A stretch of 64,000 nt of DNA from the NCBI GenBank assembly GCA_963819915.1, contig CAWFXX010000010.1, positions 21,289 through 85,288 on the forward strand. Reading direction: 5' to 3'. The stretch's first letter is position 1. Each line of letters begins with the position of its first letter. This document shows, one piece after another, positions 11,598 through 44,142 of this stretch. Under the pieces are notes generated by a model. It was not told the origin of the DNA. It saw only the letters and a program-made list of their open reading frames with translations, and made no database searches. This stretch comes from an uncultured Alphaproteobacteria bacterium (GTDB lineage: Bacteria > Pseudomonadota > Alphaproteobacteria > Rhizobiales > Xanthobacteraceae). A program made the translations under genes and the position numbers.

Positions 11598-12350
11598 ATG
11601 CCGAATTCGCAATCGAACCAGCCGCGCCGCACGTTGCTTCTCACCGGAGCAAGCCGCGGCATTGGCCATGCGACCGTCAAACGTTTCTCGGCGGCCGGCT
11701 GGCGTGTGATCACCTGTTCGCGTCATCCGTTTCCGGAAAATTGCCCGTGGGACGCCGGTCCGGAAGATCACATCCAGGTCGATCTTGCAAACGAAGCCAA
11801 TACCGACGCGGCGATTGCCGAGATCAAGCAGCGGCTCGATACGCATGAATTGCACGCGCTCGTCAACAACGCGGCGATCTCGCCCAAAGCTGATGGCGGC
11901 AAGAGGCTCAGCACGCTCGACACCAGCAACGACGATTGGCACCACGTCTTTCAGGTCAACTTCTTTGCCCCGATTATGCTGGCGCGCGGTCTAGTGAATG
12001 AACTCAAGGCGGCGAAGGGCTCAGTGGTAAACGTGACATCGATTGCCGGCTCGCGCGTTCATCCCTTCGCGGGCGCAGCCTATTCGACATCGAAGGCGGC
12101 ACTCGCTGCCCTCACCCGCGAAATGGCCAGCGACTTTGGCCGCCTCGGCATTCGTGTCAACGCTATTGCACCAGGCGAAATCGACACCGCCATTCTGTCT
12201 CCCGGCACGGAAAAGATTGTCGAGCAAATACCGCTACAGCGTCTCGGCACGCCGGACGAAGTTTCCAAAATCATCTACGTGCTGTGCACCGACACGAGCT
12301 CCTACGTGAACGGCGCCGAGATCCATATCAATGGCGGTCAGCACGTGTGA
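11598..12350 (+). CDS. SDR family oxidoreductase
   Basis: TGASRGIG, NNAA, YSTSK, NAIAPG. Confidence 0.92.
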   Translation: MPNSQSNQPRRTLLLTGASRGIGHATVKRFSAAGWRVITCSRHPFPENCPWDAGPEDHIQVDLANEANTDAAIAEIKQRLDTHELHALVNNAAISPKADGGKRLSTLDTSNDDWHHVFQVNFFAPIMLARGLVNELKAAKGSVVNVTSIAGSRVHPFAGAAYSTSKAALAALTREMASDFGRLGIRVNAIAPGEIDTAILSPGTEKIVEQIPLQRLGTPDEVSKIIYVLCTDTSSYVNGAEIHINGGQHV

Positions 12351-12406
12351 GGCGGGTTCGCGGCACAAAGCAAATACCGCTCGTTTCCCGGCGCGTCGTA
12401 TCCGCT

Positions 12407-12497
12407 GTCATGGCCGGGCTTGTCCCGGCCATCCCGTTTAGGTTTGGCACCGCGTTGCCTTTCTAAGCGGGATCACCGGGACGAGCCCGGTGATGAC
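12407..12497. repeat. REP-like element (gtcatggccgggcttgtcccggccat class)
   Basis: Hairpins atggccggg/cccggccat and atcaccggg/cccggtgat flanking a paired core. Confidence 0.85.
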
Positions 12498-12548
12498 GTG
12501 CGGCGGGCGCAGTTGAGCCGCTTCGCGCCAAGACAAGCGTCATCGCCC

Positions 12549-13047
12549 TGTTTCTTTGCGGCGCCGGGTACGCCGTCGTCCATCGGCAGAAACTCGCGCC
12601 GCCGGGAAAAGAACCGAGGGCGCGCGGGACGCCAAGGGTCATAATGGACCCACGGGCCTCGACGCCTCGCGACATCGAGGCTTGTCGAAGTCCTTTGTAG
12701 TGCCGCAAGTCCGCCAAACCCAAGGCGTCCCGCGCGCGGTGTTTGAGGTTTGCTCCGCGCCGTCCCCGGTGGTCGACCCGTTCGTCACACCGGCCCGTTG
12801 TCCGTTCCGTGCAACGCTCCACCGTTTGAGGCCCTGGCACCTCAGCCAGCGATGCTTCTGACCGCCCGCCGGCTTACCAGCCGTCAGTGGGGCTCTCGGC
12901 GTGCGGCAGGCACGCCGGGATCGTGCGCGGCTTGGACCGCCGGGTGGGAAGTACGCGCCGCATCTCCGACGCCCCATTCCCGGCCACCGCTCCCCGCCCC
13001 GCGTCTGGAGACGCTGATCAGACACCCCTCGGTAACGGGGCGGGATG
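12549..13047. other. ~500 bp highly structured non-coding element (candidate MITE-like element or structured RNA)
   Basis: Long-range 20-nt inverted repeat 12620-12639 / 12718-12737, several internal hairpins, terminal stem 12993-13001 / 13036-13044; no credible ORF. Confidence 0.6.
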
Positions 13048-13138
13048 ACAATAGGAAAACATACCTTAGGAATAAAATCAAGAGCCGCCGGCGGAAGTTC
13101 AATGGCCGGTACCAGGCTGACGTATACGAAATGATAAC

Positions 13139-13160
13139 TGACGAATATTGACATTCATCA
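13139..13160. promoter_or_regulatory. Candidate TetR operator overlapping a TTGACA -35
   Basis: TGACGAAT-N6-ATTCATCA imperfect palindrome with TTGACA at 13148-13153, upstream of an RND operon that ends in tetR. Confidence 0.5.
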
Positions 13161-13197
13161 TTAGTTATGGCGTTGTCAGGTCATTGGAGGTCCAAAA

Positions 13198-14295
13198 ATG
13201 TCCGCTCCCGCCAGTTTCTCCATATTTCACAAGCTGTTGGTCTTGTTGCCTGTCGTCGCCCTCGCCGGCTGCGAACCCACCACAGCCCAACAGCCCGCGC
13301 CTGCAAGGCCGGTTCTCGTCACCAGCGTCCATTTTGAGCCCCAGGTCGCCGACCGCAGCTTTGTCGGCACAATCCGCCCGCGGATCGAAAGCGACCTGGG
13401 CTTCCGGGTAGCCGGGAAGGTATCCCGGCGACTGGTCGAGGTCGGCGCGCTGGTCGAGAGCGGTCAGCCGCTGGCGACGCTAGACGAGACCGACCTCACC
13501 TTGCAGGCCGAACAGGCCAAGGCCGAGCTAAGGGCGGCGACCGGGGTGGTCGCCCAGGCGAGCGCTGCCGAAACCCGCACCAGCGAACTGCGGCAGAAGG
13601 GCTGGTCGACCGATGCGCAGCTCGACCAAGCCAAGGCGGCGGCTGACGAGGCTCGCGCGCGGCTCAGCCGCGCGCAGCAGTCGGTCGAGCTGACGAAGAA
13701 CAGTCTCTCCTACGCGACGCTTGTTGCCGATGCTCCTGGGGTGGTCACCGCAACTTTGGTCGAGCCCGGTCAGGTCGTTGCTTCCGGACAGACGGCCATC
13801 CGCGTGGCGCGGCTTGGCGAAAAGGAAGTCGTGGTCGCGATACCCGAAACACTATTGACGCGCGCCAGGTCCGCCGAGGCGCGGGTCTCGATCTGGTCCG
13901 AGCCGGGCAAGGATTACGTGGCGAAGCTTCGCGAGCTCGCCCCCTCTGCCGATCCGGCAACACGAACCTATCTCGCCAAGTTCTCGATGCCCGGCGCCGG
14001 CAATGAAGTACAGCTCGGAATGACAGCGACACTGATATTGTCCGATGCAGCCAGCGAACGCGTTGCTCGTCTTCCCCTCTCCGCGTTGTTCGATCAGGGC
14101 GGCGGTCCCGCGCTTTACATTGTCGACAGCAAGACCGGCGCCGTCATACTCAAGTACGTGACCGTCAAGGCCTATGAAGCCAGCAACGTGCTGATCAGCG
14201 GTGGCGTCGATGAAGGCGCAAACGTGGTGACCCTCGGCGTGCAGAAACTCGAGCCTGCCGAGAAAGTCAAAGTGGTTTCGTCCCTCTCATTCTGA
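13198..14295 (+). CDS. RND efflux periplasmic adaptor subunit (lipoprotein)
   Basis: LAGC lipobox, GFRVAGKV, alpha-hairpin, ADPATRTY, LPLSAL. Confidence 0.92.
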   Translation: MSAPASFSIFHKLLVLLPVVALAGCEPTTAQQPAPARPVLVTSVHFEPQVADRSFVGTIRPRIESDLGFRVAGKVSRRLVEVGALVESGQPLATLDETDLTLQAEQAKAELRAATGVVAQASAAETRTSELRQKGWSTDAQLDQAKAAADEARARLSRAQQSVELTKNSLSYATLVADAPGVVTATLVEPGQVVASGQTAIRVARLGEKEVVVAIPETLLTRARSAEARVSIWSEPGKDYVAKLRELAPSADPATRTYLAKFSMPGAGNEVQLGMTATLILSDAASERVARLPLSALFDQGGGPALYIVDSKTGAVILKYVTVKAYEASNVLISGGVDEGANVVTLGVQKLEPAEKVKVVSSLSF

Positions 14296-14311: not shown

Positions 14312-17300
14312 ATGCGTCGTTTCAATCTTTCAGCGTGGGCAGTCGCGCACCCCGCCTTGATCCTTTTCCTGATTGTGATGTTTGGCGTGGGAGGCCTGCT
14401 CTCGTACCGCAGCCTGGGGCGCGCAGAGGATCCTTCGTTCACCATCAAGGTGGCGGTGGTCACCGCGATGTGGCCGGGCGCAACGGCAGCCGACATGCAG
14501 GCGCAGGTCGCCGATCCGATCGAAAAGAAGCTGCAGGAGCTTCCCTATTTCGACAAGGTCACGACCTACACCAAGCCGGCATTCACGGCGATGCAGGTCG
14601 CCTTCAAGGACAATACCCCGGCGCGCCAGGTGCCGGAGCTGTTCTACCAGTTGCGCAAGAAAATCAGCGACATCAAGGACGACCTGCCGTCGGGCCTGAC
14701 TGGCCCGTCCGTCAATGACGAATATGGCGACGTCGACTCGATCCTCTACATGCTGACGGCCAACGGCGCCGACTATGCCCAGATGAAAAAGGTTGCGGAA
14801 GGCGTCCGGCAACGGCTGCTGAAGGTTAAGAATGTCACCAAAGTCAATCTTTACGGCACGCAGGACGAAAAGATCTACGTCGAGTTTTCCAATGCCAAGC
14901 TGGCGACGCTCGGTGTCACCACCGATCAGATTTTCCAGTCGCTCGCCCGGCAGAATGCCGTCGTGCCGGCCGGCACTGTGGAGTCCTCGGCGCAGCGTGT
15001 TCCCCTGCGCGTGACCGGCGCCCTTGACGGCGTCAAGGCTGTGTCCGAGACGCCGGTCGAGGCCAATGGCCGCGTCTTCCGCCTCGGCGACATCGCGCAG
15101 GTCACCCACGGCTTTGTCGATCCACCGGATTTCCAGGTGCGGCAGGAGGGCAAATCCGCCATCGGCATCGGCGTGGTAATGGCGAAGGGTGCCAACATTC
15201 TTGAGCTGGGCCCTGCCGTGGCCGCTGCTACCGCGGACTTCATGGCCGCGGTGCCGCAAGGATTTGAACTTCAGCAGATCGCCGATCAGCCGGAAGTCGT
15301 CGAGCACGCTGTTGGCGAGTTCGTCCATTCCTTCATCGAGGCGCTTGCGATCGTGCTGTTCGTCAGTTTCCTCGCGCTAGGCTGGCGTACCGGCATCGTC
15401 GTTGCGCTCTCCGTCCCGCTGGTGCTGGCGATCGTCTTCATCGTTATGAACGCGATGGGCATGGACCTGCACCGGATTACGCTTGGTGCCCTCATTATTG
15501 CACTCGGCCTGCTGGTCGATGACGCCATCATCGCCGTCGAAATGATGGTGGTGAAAATGGAACAGGGCTGGGACCGGATGCGCGCCGCATCGTTTGCCTG
15601 GGAATCCACGGCTTTCCCGATGCTCACCGGGACGCTGGTGACGGCCGCCGGATTTCTGCCCATCGGCTTTGCCAGTTCCTCGGTCGGCGAATATGCCGGC
15701 GGCATCTTCTGGGTCGTAGCTATCTCCCTGGTAGCCTCGTGGTTCGTGGCCGTGGTGTTCACGCCCTATATCGGCGTGCAACTCCTTGGCAACCTGGGAC
15801 AAGGCGGCCGCAAACACGACCCGCATGCGATTTACGAGACGCGGACCTACCGCGCGCTGCGCCGCCTCATCGAATGGTGCATCGAGCGGCGGGGCACGGT
15901 CGTGCTGGCGACCATCGGTGTCTTCGCGCTCTCAATCGCCGGCTTCGGCCTCGTGCAGCAGCAATTCTTCCCGCTCTCCGAGCGGCCCGAGCTGTTCTTC
16001 CAGTTGCGCCTGCCCGAAGGAACCGCCTTCGGCACCACGCTCGAATCCGTCAAGAAGGCGGAGACCCTGCTCAAGGGCGACAAGGATATTTCGACCTACA
16101 CGACCTATGTCGGCCGCGGCTCACCGCGCTTCTGGATTGGCCTCAATCCGCAGCTGCCGAACCAATCCTTCGCAGAGATCGTGGTCGTGTCGAAGGACGT
16201 CGAGGCACGCGAACGGATCAAGGCACGCGTCGAGAAGGCGGTCGCGAACGGCGCGCTTTCGGAAGCGCGCGTACGCGTTGACCGGTTCAACTTTGGCCCG
16301 CCGGTCGGTTTCCCCGTGCAGTTCCGAAGTCATCGGCCCCGACACCAAAAAGGTGCGCGAGATCGCCTATCGGGTGCGGGATGTCATGCGGGACAACAAA
16401 CAGTTGGTGGATCCCCATCTCGACTGGAATGAGCAGTCGCCGTACCTGAAGCTCGTCGTCGATCAGGACCGCGTGCGCGCCCTCGGCATGACGCCCCAGG
16501 ATATTTCCAAGTCGCTGAGCATGCTGATCTCCGGTGTGCCGATCACCACGGTGCGCGACGGCATCGAGAAAGTCGAAGTGGTGGCGCGCGCCGTGTCTTC
16601 GGAACAACTCGACCTCGCACATATCGGCGACCTGTCGATCTATTCGAAAAACGGCGTCGCCGTCCCGCTCTCGCAGATTGCCAAAGTCGAATTCTCCCAT
16701 GAGGAGCCGATCCTGTGGCGCATCAACCGCGATATGGCGATCACGGTGCGCGCCGATGTCGTTGATGGCGTGCAGCCCCCGGACGCCACCAATGCAATCT
16801 GGCCGAAACTCAAATCCATCCGCGACAGTCTCGAGCCGGCCTACCGGATCGAGATCGGCGGCGCGATCGAGGAATCCGAGAAGGGCAACGCCTCGATCTT
16901 CGTGTTGTTTCCGGTGATGATCGCTGCGATGCTCACGTTGCTGATGGTGCAGCTGCAGAACATCTCGCGGCTCGTGCTGGTCTTTCTGACGGCCCCGCTA
17001 GGGATCATTGGAGCCTCATTGGCCCTGAATGTTGCCGACCGGCCTTTTGGCTTTGTCGCGTTGCTCGGCCTTATCGCACTTGCCGGTATGATCATGCGCA
17101 ACGCCGTGATTCTGGTCGACCAGATCGAAACGGATGTCGCCCACGGGCTGACCCTACGCGAGGCTATTGTGGAAGCGACCGTCAGGCGGGCAAGGCCTGT
17201 CATCCTCACGGCCATGGCGGCGATCTTGGCCATGATTCCGCTGTCCCACTCGGCATTCTGGGGCCCAATGGCGGTCACCATCATGGGAGGTCTGTTCGTG

Positions 17301-44065: not shown

Positions 44066-44142
44066 TGGTCGGAGTGGCAGGATTTGAACCTGCGACCCCC
44101 TCGTCCCGAACGAGGTGCGCTACCAGACTGCGCTACACTCCG
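44066..44142 (-). tRNA. tRNA-Pro (anticodon CGG)
   Basis: Reverse complement CGGAGTGTAGCGCAGTCTGGTAGCGCACCTCGTTCGGGACGAGGGGGTCGCAGGTTCAAATCCTGCCACTCCGACCA: cloverleaf, TTC loop, CCA end. Confidence 0.97.

Follow-up and report, generated by a model that had tools for sequence, protein, structure and literature searches.

The 64,000-nucleotide stretch of DNA analysed here (hereafter the window) belongs to an uncultured member of the Xanthobacteraceae (assembly GCA_963819915.1, contig CAWFXX010000010.1, positions 21,289 to 85,288). Its minus strand carries, at 12500-13047, what is very probably a gene for a multi-domain, pseudoknotted non-coding RNA (ncRNA) of large size (about 520-550 nt), with a second intact paralog elsewhere in the genome. 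Judged from comparative sequence analysis, this RNA is a new large structured family, restricted to Xanthobacteraceae and absent from Rfam 15 and not found in the searchable literature; in descriptive terms it can be placed among the large stand-alone structured ncRNA genes, such as OLE, ROOL and GOLLD, on the basis of a covarying structure found on one strand. The initial annotation of the segment, made from the letters of this DNA only, had described a densely base-paired non-coding element without recognisable family, and had offered two readings of it, a large structured RNA family or a non-autonomous mobile element. The former stands, on account of covariation, of the strand asymmetry of G·U pairs, of promoter placement and of the absence of an Rfam match; the latter does not, given the lack of family-wide terminal inverted repeats (TIRs), the syntenic position of the loci, the absence of an RVT_1 reverse transcriptase and the signs of gene conversion.

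The structure was evaluated on an alignment (A1) of 86 distinct full-length copies in RNA orientation, obtained from more than 100 copies gathered with nhmmer. A nested model of 119 pairs in 21 helices has standard pairs in 94.2% of its cells, versus 35-47% in slid controls; 57 of the 119 pairs are changed on both sides (29-34 in the slid controls), and the same holds for 331 single cells (77-111). The 5′ domain alone is paired in 97.8% of cells, versus 46-56% in the controls, and along the 86 copies invariant blocks alternate with variable stems bearing compensatory substitutions. An all-against-all scan of column pairing was drowned in chance GC-rich complementarity, and RNAalifold together with pair counts was used instead. 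Two tertiary pairings, PK1 and PK2, lie outside what RNAalifold can draw; taken together, they are 97.2% paired (34-61% in the controls) and show G-C to C-G and C-G to U-A exchanges. The covariation check that had been proposed with the initial annotation was thus performed by pair counts on the 86-copy alignment, and strong covariation was found.

The pairing is that of an RNA read on the minus strand, which had gone unrecognised as the functional strand. Over the modelled pairs, 1107 G·U cells are found on this strand, versus 181 A·C cells (about 6:1), and this asymmetry identifies the minus strand as the functional one; positions with invariant or toggling G·U pairs are present (e.g., U-G 85/85; G-U 52 / G-C 33; U-G 49 / U-A 22 / C-G 10). 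The modelled pairs are standard in 94.4% of cases when read on the minus strand and in 86.0% on the plus strand. In the helices that RNAalifold predicts on both strands, plus-strand A·C cells, corresponding to G·U on the minus strand, number 291, versus 107 G·T. Minimum free energy (MFE) does not tell the strands apart, its z-score being -3.65 on the plus and -3.49 on the minus strand.

The element lies in an 847-bp gap (12351-13197) between an SDR gene (11598-12350, plus strand) and a HlyD-type membrane-fusion gene (13198-14295, plus strand), after which an AcrB-type gene comes; relative to the RNA gene, HlyD is divergent and the SDR gene convergent. Homology to the copies of relatives spans 12500/12513 to 13085, and their conservation profile runs from about 12500/12531 up to 13085. 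Based on homology, on this profile and on A1, the RNA would begin at 13046/13047 (C-AUCCCGCC...) and end between about 12500 and 12531, with promoter-like sequence continuing to 13085. All the sequences quoted in the initial annotation were found where it had placed them; its range, 12549-13047, is too short, as it misses a pseudoknot tail (12544-12550), the 3′ extension to about 12500 and the promoter-like region at 13050-13085.

At the 5′ end of the RNA, the hairpin P1 (12992-13045, minus strand) is formed by UCCCGCCCCG (13045-13036) with CGGGGCGGGG (13001-12992) and encloses an inner hairpin; its outer stem is helix 1, which had been correctly read as the terminal stem cccgccccg/cggggcggg. 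The cgtct/agacg pairing placed inside it found no support: it would leave a 2-nt loop, and in the family it is GUGUCUG and CAGACGC that pair (helix 2). In divergent copies from other genera the P1 stem is replaced as a whole, e.g., by CUUCCAUCC/GGAUGGAAG (by eye). The P1 loop contains the 5′ half of PK1, CCGAGGG (13026-13032, minus), which pairs with CCCUCGG (12614-12620, minus), placed directly 3′ of a long hairpin; 97.8% of the cells pair, three of the seven pairs change on both sides, and the outer pairs vary among C-G, G-U, A-U and G-C.

P1 is followed by the P2/P3 region (12927-12991, minus), comprising a GGCCGGG/CCCGGC helix, a hairpin with the conserved loop GGAGAUGCG (12967-12959) and a GCGG-UCCAAG-CCGC motif (12941-12927); its helices 4 and 5 have five pairs each changed on both sides. 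In the cross-genus alignment the P3 loop GGAGAUGC is complementary to GCGUCUCC in the P1 apex in all genera, with a 4-bp core that never varies, and the two may form a third, candidate tertiary pairing. The central domain (12773-12926, minus) is variable and contains helices 8-14, with hairpins at 12897-12917 and 12858-12887; the spacing between its conserved flanks is shorter in some relatives. Here, the proposed cggcgtgc/gcacgccg stem corresponds to helix 9, all seven pairs of which are changed on both sides, and ctgac/gtcag with its inner hairpin to helices 12-13; ccggtg/caccgg is not supported, the conserved partner of 12767-12772 being 12819-12824, in the CGGUGG/CCACCG helix (helix 14).

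A conserved junction, GGAGCAAACCU..AAACACC, leads to the long 3′ hairpin domain (12620-12758, minus; helices 15-19), with a base formed by GCGCGCGGGACGCC/GGCGUCCCGCGCGC and an apical hairpin at 12656-12681. The long inverted repeat reported at 12620-12639 and 12718-12737 is present and coincides with helices 15-16 in the family-wide pair counts; it is not perfect, 18 of its 20 positions being complementary with an AA/AA mismatch. Helix 15, at the base, is almost invariant, while helix 19, i.e., the cctcga/tcgagg hairpin within the repeat, has six pairs changed on both sides. The last structured part (12544-12574, minus) is a small 3′ hairpin, GGCG-UACCCGG-CGCC (12574-12560), whose loop CCCG forms PK2 with the tail at 12550-12544 (CAGGGCG in the window copy). 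In the hairpin, pair 814-823 is G-C in 49 copies and C-G in 27; in PK2, pair 821-844 is G-C in 58 and C-G in 18, and pair 820-845 is C-G in 81 and U-A in 2. Counted by copies, PK2 is CCCG:CGGG in 58, CCCC:GGGG in 18 and CCUC:GAGG in 2, and its last pair in the window copy is a G·A mismatch. Past PK2, the tail alignment reads GGGCG(GCGGAGC/AUGACGC), then ..UUGGCU / GCUGUUUGAAA or, in the window copy, UGUCUUGGCGCGAAGCGG...

The RNA is modular, as far as can be read from the aligned copies. An extra hairpin (GAGCACUU..GCGCAC..GUGCGC) is present in the apical loop of the long hairpin in a number of Pseudolabrys copies (A1 columns 638-685). The long 3′ hairpin itself exists in two old variants, GGCGGACUUGCGG...CCCGUGGGUCC and UUCCGUGGUGACUA...CACGAGGCUGCGG, both of which are found in Pseudolabrys and in other genera.

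The region upstream of the RNA was studied by aligning the 60 nt preceding the conserved minus-strand start (13047/13046) in 83 copies. Most of them contain cTTGAC(A/T), a spacer of about 17 nt, often with ATTCCTA..TAGGAAT, and a TATAAT-like hexamer. A strict sigma-70 match (TTGAC-N16-18-TATAAT-like) whose -10 stops 6-7 nt short of the A of AUCCC was found in 24 of the 83 copies, compared with a shuffle expectation of 0.87 on average and 4 at most; the remaining copies have near-consensus or different upstream types. In the window copy the promoter-like region (13050-13085, minus) consists of a -35 TTGATT (13081-13076), a 17-nt spacer with the part-palindrome ATTCCTAAGGTAT (13073-13061) and a -10 TTTCCT (13058-13053) that ends 6 nt before the conserved 5′ end. 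This variant (TATTCCTAAGGTATGTWTTCCTA) recurs in about nine other copies, as judged by eye. The use of promoter type as a marker of the locus was rejected, because positional orthologs of the SDR-adjacent copy have different promoter variants. A near-perfect palindrome, ATATTCCTATAGGAATAT, fills the -35/-10 spacer in many copies (e.g., L053, L148, L117, L002), and its presence suggests that part of the RNA gene family is controlled by a dedicated protein that binds DNA as a dimer, a proposal drawn from the upstream sequences. The palindrome ATTCCTATAGGAAT is likewise a candidate site for a binding protein, and other copies have a GGGGATAAGTTTTTTTT or CTTATCCCCGC motif upstream instead.

The source genome (4.18 Mb in 11 contigs) contains two full copies and one internally deleted remnant. 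The second full copy, on contig C1, is about 92-93% identical to that of the window, with single-base indels between the two. The remnant, on contig C5 (702784-702893; locus L003, 1431-1540), consists of the first ~35 nt of the unit fused to the last ~150 nt; it keeps the promoter variant of the window copy, followed by GGCGUCCCGCGCGCCCUCGG and the 3′ tail, and it retains both halves of PK1. A comparable mini copy, with like breakpoints, was observed in another species (L032).

Within the same genus, Pseudolabrys, 32 of the 36 other genomes examined carry copies, usually several in each and from 2 to about 20 per species; the DNA search gave none in the 24 genomes that represented other families of the order. 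When public genomes were scanned for an exact pattern, more than 120 stretches were obtained, each from a soil metagenome-assembled genome bearing the label Pseudolabrys or a broader name. A covariance model built on the 5′ domain (R1) detected only the two full copies in the source genome, and in the family it matched at least 29 of 151 sampled genomes and at least 19 of 62 genera, with up to at least 15 matches per genome; these counts are lower bounds, 24 candidates having been scored in each genome. In a sample of 150 genomes of the order, almost all from other families, R1 matched only genomes of Xanthobacteraceae. Copies from other genera preserve the promoter and P1, the two motifs GCGGUGGCC and GGUCCAAGCC, the GGAGCAAGCCUCAAACACCGCGCGCGG junction, one of the two variants of the long 3′ hairpin and the small 3′ hairpin. 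Plasmid and phage collections gave no match. The recurrence in Bradyrhizobium-like genomes that had been put forward in the initial annotation therefore holds at the level of the family, and its copy-number check finds the element to be multicopy both in the genome and among relatives.

The Rfam scan, also proposed there, matched no described family: with Rfam 15 at gathering thresholds, the only hit in the whole window is a tRNA at 44069-44142, and a permissive scan of 12300-13250 (E<=10) gave only chance-level matches of 15-23 bits, compared with gathering scores of 44-197. The permissive matches all fall within 12411-12714 or 13039-13092, the two best of them over an adjoining palindromic repeat that is described below. 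The models tested included OLE, ROOL, GOLLD, HEARO, raiA, RNase P, tmRNA, 6S, group I and II introns and the BjrC small RNAs (sRNAs). No description of this RNA was found in the searchable literature.

Some points weigh against the assignment as an expressed, structured RNA gene. None of 500 shuffles matched the observed pairing values, a result which overstates significance since the aligned copies are kin, the slid controls being the fairer test. Several helices located in GC-rich conserved blocks never vary, so they provide no covariation signal, and the 5′ region also allows alternative, mutually exclusive pairings. The promoter of the window copy, TTGATT-17-TTTCCT, is weak by consensus and does not pass the strict scan, nor did a search of this copy reveal an intrinsic terminator; its expression and 3′ end therefore stay predicted.

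Among the alternatives, a non-autonomous mobile DNA element (MITE-like, i.e., resembling miniature inverted-repeat transposable elements, or an IS200/IS605-type palindrome-associated transposable element, PATE), or an RNA with its own mobility, would account for a unit that is multicopy and dispersed, pieces of which often lie at contig ends in relatives; the hairpins would then serve as recognition structures in DNA or in single-stranded DNA. The existence of the internally deleted mini copy and of two Y1_Tnp genes in the genome fits the same idea, as does the orthologous SDR-HlyD locus of another genome (G158), where the RNA is missing: this locus implies that gain or loss does occur, although insertion boundaries could not be placed because of the divergence of its 280-bp spacer. 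Furthermore, most copies of other genomes are closest to another copy in the same genome. However, the copy adjacent to the SDR gene occupies the same position in three other species and the IlvD-adjacent copy in two others, and the two copies of the source genome share 93% identity with each other, compared with only 72-83% with their positional orthologs. An identity within the genome exceeding that to positional orthologs points to gene conversion rather than recent transposition, and, combined with the different promoters of the two copies and with the synteny, the sequence comparison indicates gene conversion among long-resident paralogs. Moreover, conservation is bounded by the promoter -35 (TTGAC) and by the RNA tail ...GGGCG(GCGGAGC/AUGACGC), with no TIRs common to the family; a GTCATC..GCCC complementarity between the ends of the window copy is not common to the copies that have the alternative tail, and inspection by eye of the flanks of the three genome copies revealed no target duplications. 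Both the 6:1 excess of G·U over A·C and the covariation in the pseudoknots point to selection acting on one strand as RNA and not on DNA. As for the co-occurrence with transposases or reverse transcriptases, which was to be checked, the two Y1_Tnp genes (HUH/RAYT-type; C5:900251-903004) were indeed found, but they are far off, on a contig rich in repetitive extragenic palindromic (REP) elements and near one REP cluster, and are better explained by a link with the REP family; RVT_1 has no match in this 96%-complete genome. A retroelement-derived repeat (similar to short interspersed nuclear elements, or a group II intron or retron) was ruled against by this last result and by the lack of matches to the Intron_gpII or retron families in the Rfam scans. 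Overall, a mobile element is considered improbable. At three loci (L090, L034, L148) the synteny on the SDR side is kept and HlyD was not found beside the RNA copy in the stretches that were fetched; a rearrangement breakpoint would there fall at the RNA gene.

A mosaic of intergenic repeats of REP type or of the bacterial interspersed mosaic element (BIME) type, devoid of own function and with stems that are by-products of GC-rich palindromes, could be suspected from the abundant REP-like element that directly adjoins, from the REP-type-looking insertions in the 3′ tail of some copies and from the high GC content, which yields many chance stems. The adjoining element noticed in the initial annotation is real: a REP-like palindromic repeat of about 95 nt is located at 12401-12498 (strand not assigned), just beyond the 3′ region of the RNA and outside the RNA family, with 35-nt arms that are 83% complementary; more than 100 copies related to it are present in the genome, with dense clusters on contigs C10 (~150-180 kb) and C5 (~840-862 kb). 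Short palindromic units, very many copies and a RAYT, the hallmarks of REP/BIME, apply to 12401-12498 and not to the RNA unit, since REP units measure about 35-95 nt and exceed 100 copies, whereas the RNA unit is about 550 nt long and has 2 copies. Compensatory changes in 57 of 119 pairs, two long-range pseudoknots and an architecture kept across 19 genera at low sequence identity also speak against such a mosaic, which is very improbable. Hardly any credit can be given to a cis-acting leader, riboswitch or regulatory region of the HlyD/AcrB-type efflux operon, or to a protein-coding gene, even if the element lies 118 nt upstream of the HlyD start codon and the RNA strand contains an open reading frame (ORF) of 171 aa. 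HlyD is encoded on the strand opposite to the structured one, and its orthologs in other species are without the element, keeping only an operator-like segment at 13123-13175. When the ORFs within 1.2 kb of 97 copies were clustered, no recurrent partner gene emerged, the largest cluster covering 7 of the 97 loci and reflecting synteny only; the long downstream ORFs are on the same strand at 41 loci and on the opposite one at 47. Unrelated neighbours in either orientation therefore exclude a cis-regulatory role, and a riboswitch or 5′ leader was rejected on the grounds of the opposite strand, of the absence of a constant gene position and of the roughly 50:50 orientation of the neighbours. Regarding coding, of 464 indel runs counted between close copies, 90% have a length not divisible by three, most being of 1-2 nt, and the two genome copies differ by single-base indels, so the element is not protein-coding; the 171-aa ORF (12639-13154, minus) has no Pfam match, and none of the four overlapping ORFs is among the called proteins of a 15-billion protein collection. 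The overlapping ORFs had been regarded as spurious; the additional remark, that such elements are usually miscalled as hypothetical proteins, fails for the window copy, none of its four ORFs being a called protein. The cis-regulatory and coding interpretations can be taken as already refuted by the neighbour contexts and by the indel pattern.

If the segment is a structured-RNA gene, as preferred here, transcription would proceed from its own promoter (13050-13085), starting at C/A 13047/13046. The transcript would fold into P1, the P2/P3 branch with its GGAGAUGCG loop, the variable central domain, a single-stranded junction, the long GC-rich 3′ hairpin and the small 3′ hairpin, and this fold would be locked by PK1, between the P1 loop and the segment following the long hairpin, and by PK2, between the loop of the 3′ hairpin and the 3′ tail. 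The RNA may act in trans as a structural molecule, i.e., as a scaffold for a ribonucleoprotein or as a self-assembling or catalytic RNA, being presumably neither a cis-regulator of its neighbours nor a transposon; the bodies of the paralogs would be kept alike within a genome by gene conversion, while their differing promoters suggest a condition-specific supply. With more reserve, and at somewhat less than even chances, it may be proposed that this is an undescribed class of bacterial RNA, large and with multiple pseudoknots, that fulfils a biochemical role of a new kind, as a ribozyme, a self-assembling particle or the core of an unknown ribonucleoprotein, encoded by a small gene family with individually regulated promoters and homogenised by gene conversion because its members must stay interchangeable, e.g., for co-assembly.

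Large bacterial RNAs with complex conserved folds are rare and, to our knowledge, each of those described so far (RNase P, tmRNA, group I/II introns, OLE, ROOL, GOLLD, omega-RNAs) proved to carry unusual biochemistry. OLE (RF01071) is a stand-alone RNA that works in a ribonucleoprotein and whose function was long obscure; it is a bacterial ncRNA of about 600 nt and, like the family described here, has conserved nucleotides interspersed with covarying helices. It differs in that no sequence or model match links the two, and in being single-copy, confined to Bacillota and located in an operon with partner protein genes, whereas the present RNA is multicopy, belongs to Alphaproteobacteria and has its own predicted promoter and no recurrent neighbour gene. 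ROOL (RF03087) and GOLLD (RF01998), which are typically associated with prophages or plasmids, are similarly large, intricately folded and pseudoknotted, and have no assigned function; unlike them, this RNA matches neither model, has no match in the phage and plasmid collections and occupies syntenic chromosomal loci. In a preprint, cryo-electron microscopy is reported to show ROOL and GOLLD self-assembling into RNA-only complexes (bioRxiv 10.1101/2024.12.08.627333); by analogy, self-assembly is one possible reading of the present RNA.

HEARO and the omega-RNAs of IscB, IsrB and TnpB are also structured, can reach many copies per genome and sometimes lack an adjacent ORF. The present family, however, has no HEARO match, no nuclease or transposase gene adjacent to its copies, and a predicted promoter with a conserved 5′ end rather than a transposon end. 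In having several paralogs with a conserved body and individually different promoters it resembles CsrB/C, RsmX/Y/Z and Qrr1-5, and its homogenisation within genomes, consistent with gene conversion, recalls the ribosomal RNA operons; those regulatory RNAs, of 100-350 nt, are made of simple repeated hairpins, whereas here about 550 nt adopt one complex fold with two pseudoknots and no repeated protein-binding motif. In Bradyrhizobium japonicum, of the same bacterial family, Br-REP1 and Br-REP2 and the BjsR sRNAs are comparable as repeated intergenic elements and as multicopy sRNAs with RpoD-type promoters, respectively. The BjsR sRNAs are small (Northern size markers of 60-160 nt) and present in 2-4 copies, most of them being reported as Bradyrhizobium-specific (Hahn et al. 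2016, PMC5082802). None of these matches a 0.5-kb pseudoknotted RNA, and the Br-REP elements are analogous to the repeat at 12401-12498 instead.

What makes the family notable is the combination of a length of about 0.5 kb with at least two covarying pseudoknots, up to ~15-20 copies per genome and a presence in about one third of the sampled genera of the family. Its recognition would allow the annotation of intergenic gaps of 0.6-0.8 kb that are currently unexplained and appear “empty”, and the concerted evolution of the paralogs, combined with their differing promoters, raises evolutionary and regulatory questions. Xanthobacteraceae include major soil and plant-associated bacteria, and the proposals made here are directly testable in cultured relatives.

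Two further observations concern the efflux genes beside the RNA gene. The segment at 13123-13175 (gtatacgaaatgataactgacgaatattgacattcatca) is AT-rich and partly palindromic and, being kept upstream of HlyD orthologs in several species without the RNA, it probably represents the operator and promoter of the efflux operon, as suggested by its sequence. The AcrB-type ORF (14312-16432), with its 706 aa, corresponds to no more than positions 3-604 of the ACR_tran profile, which has 1021 positions; near 16432 there may be a frameshift or a split of the gene.

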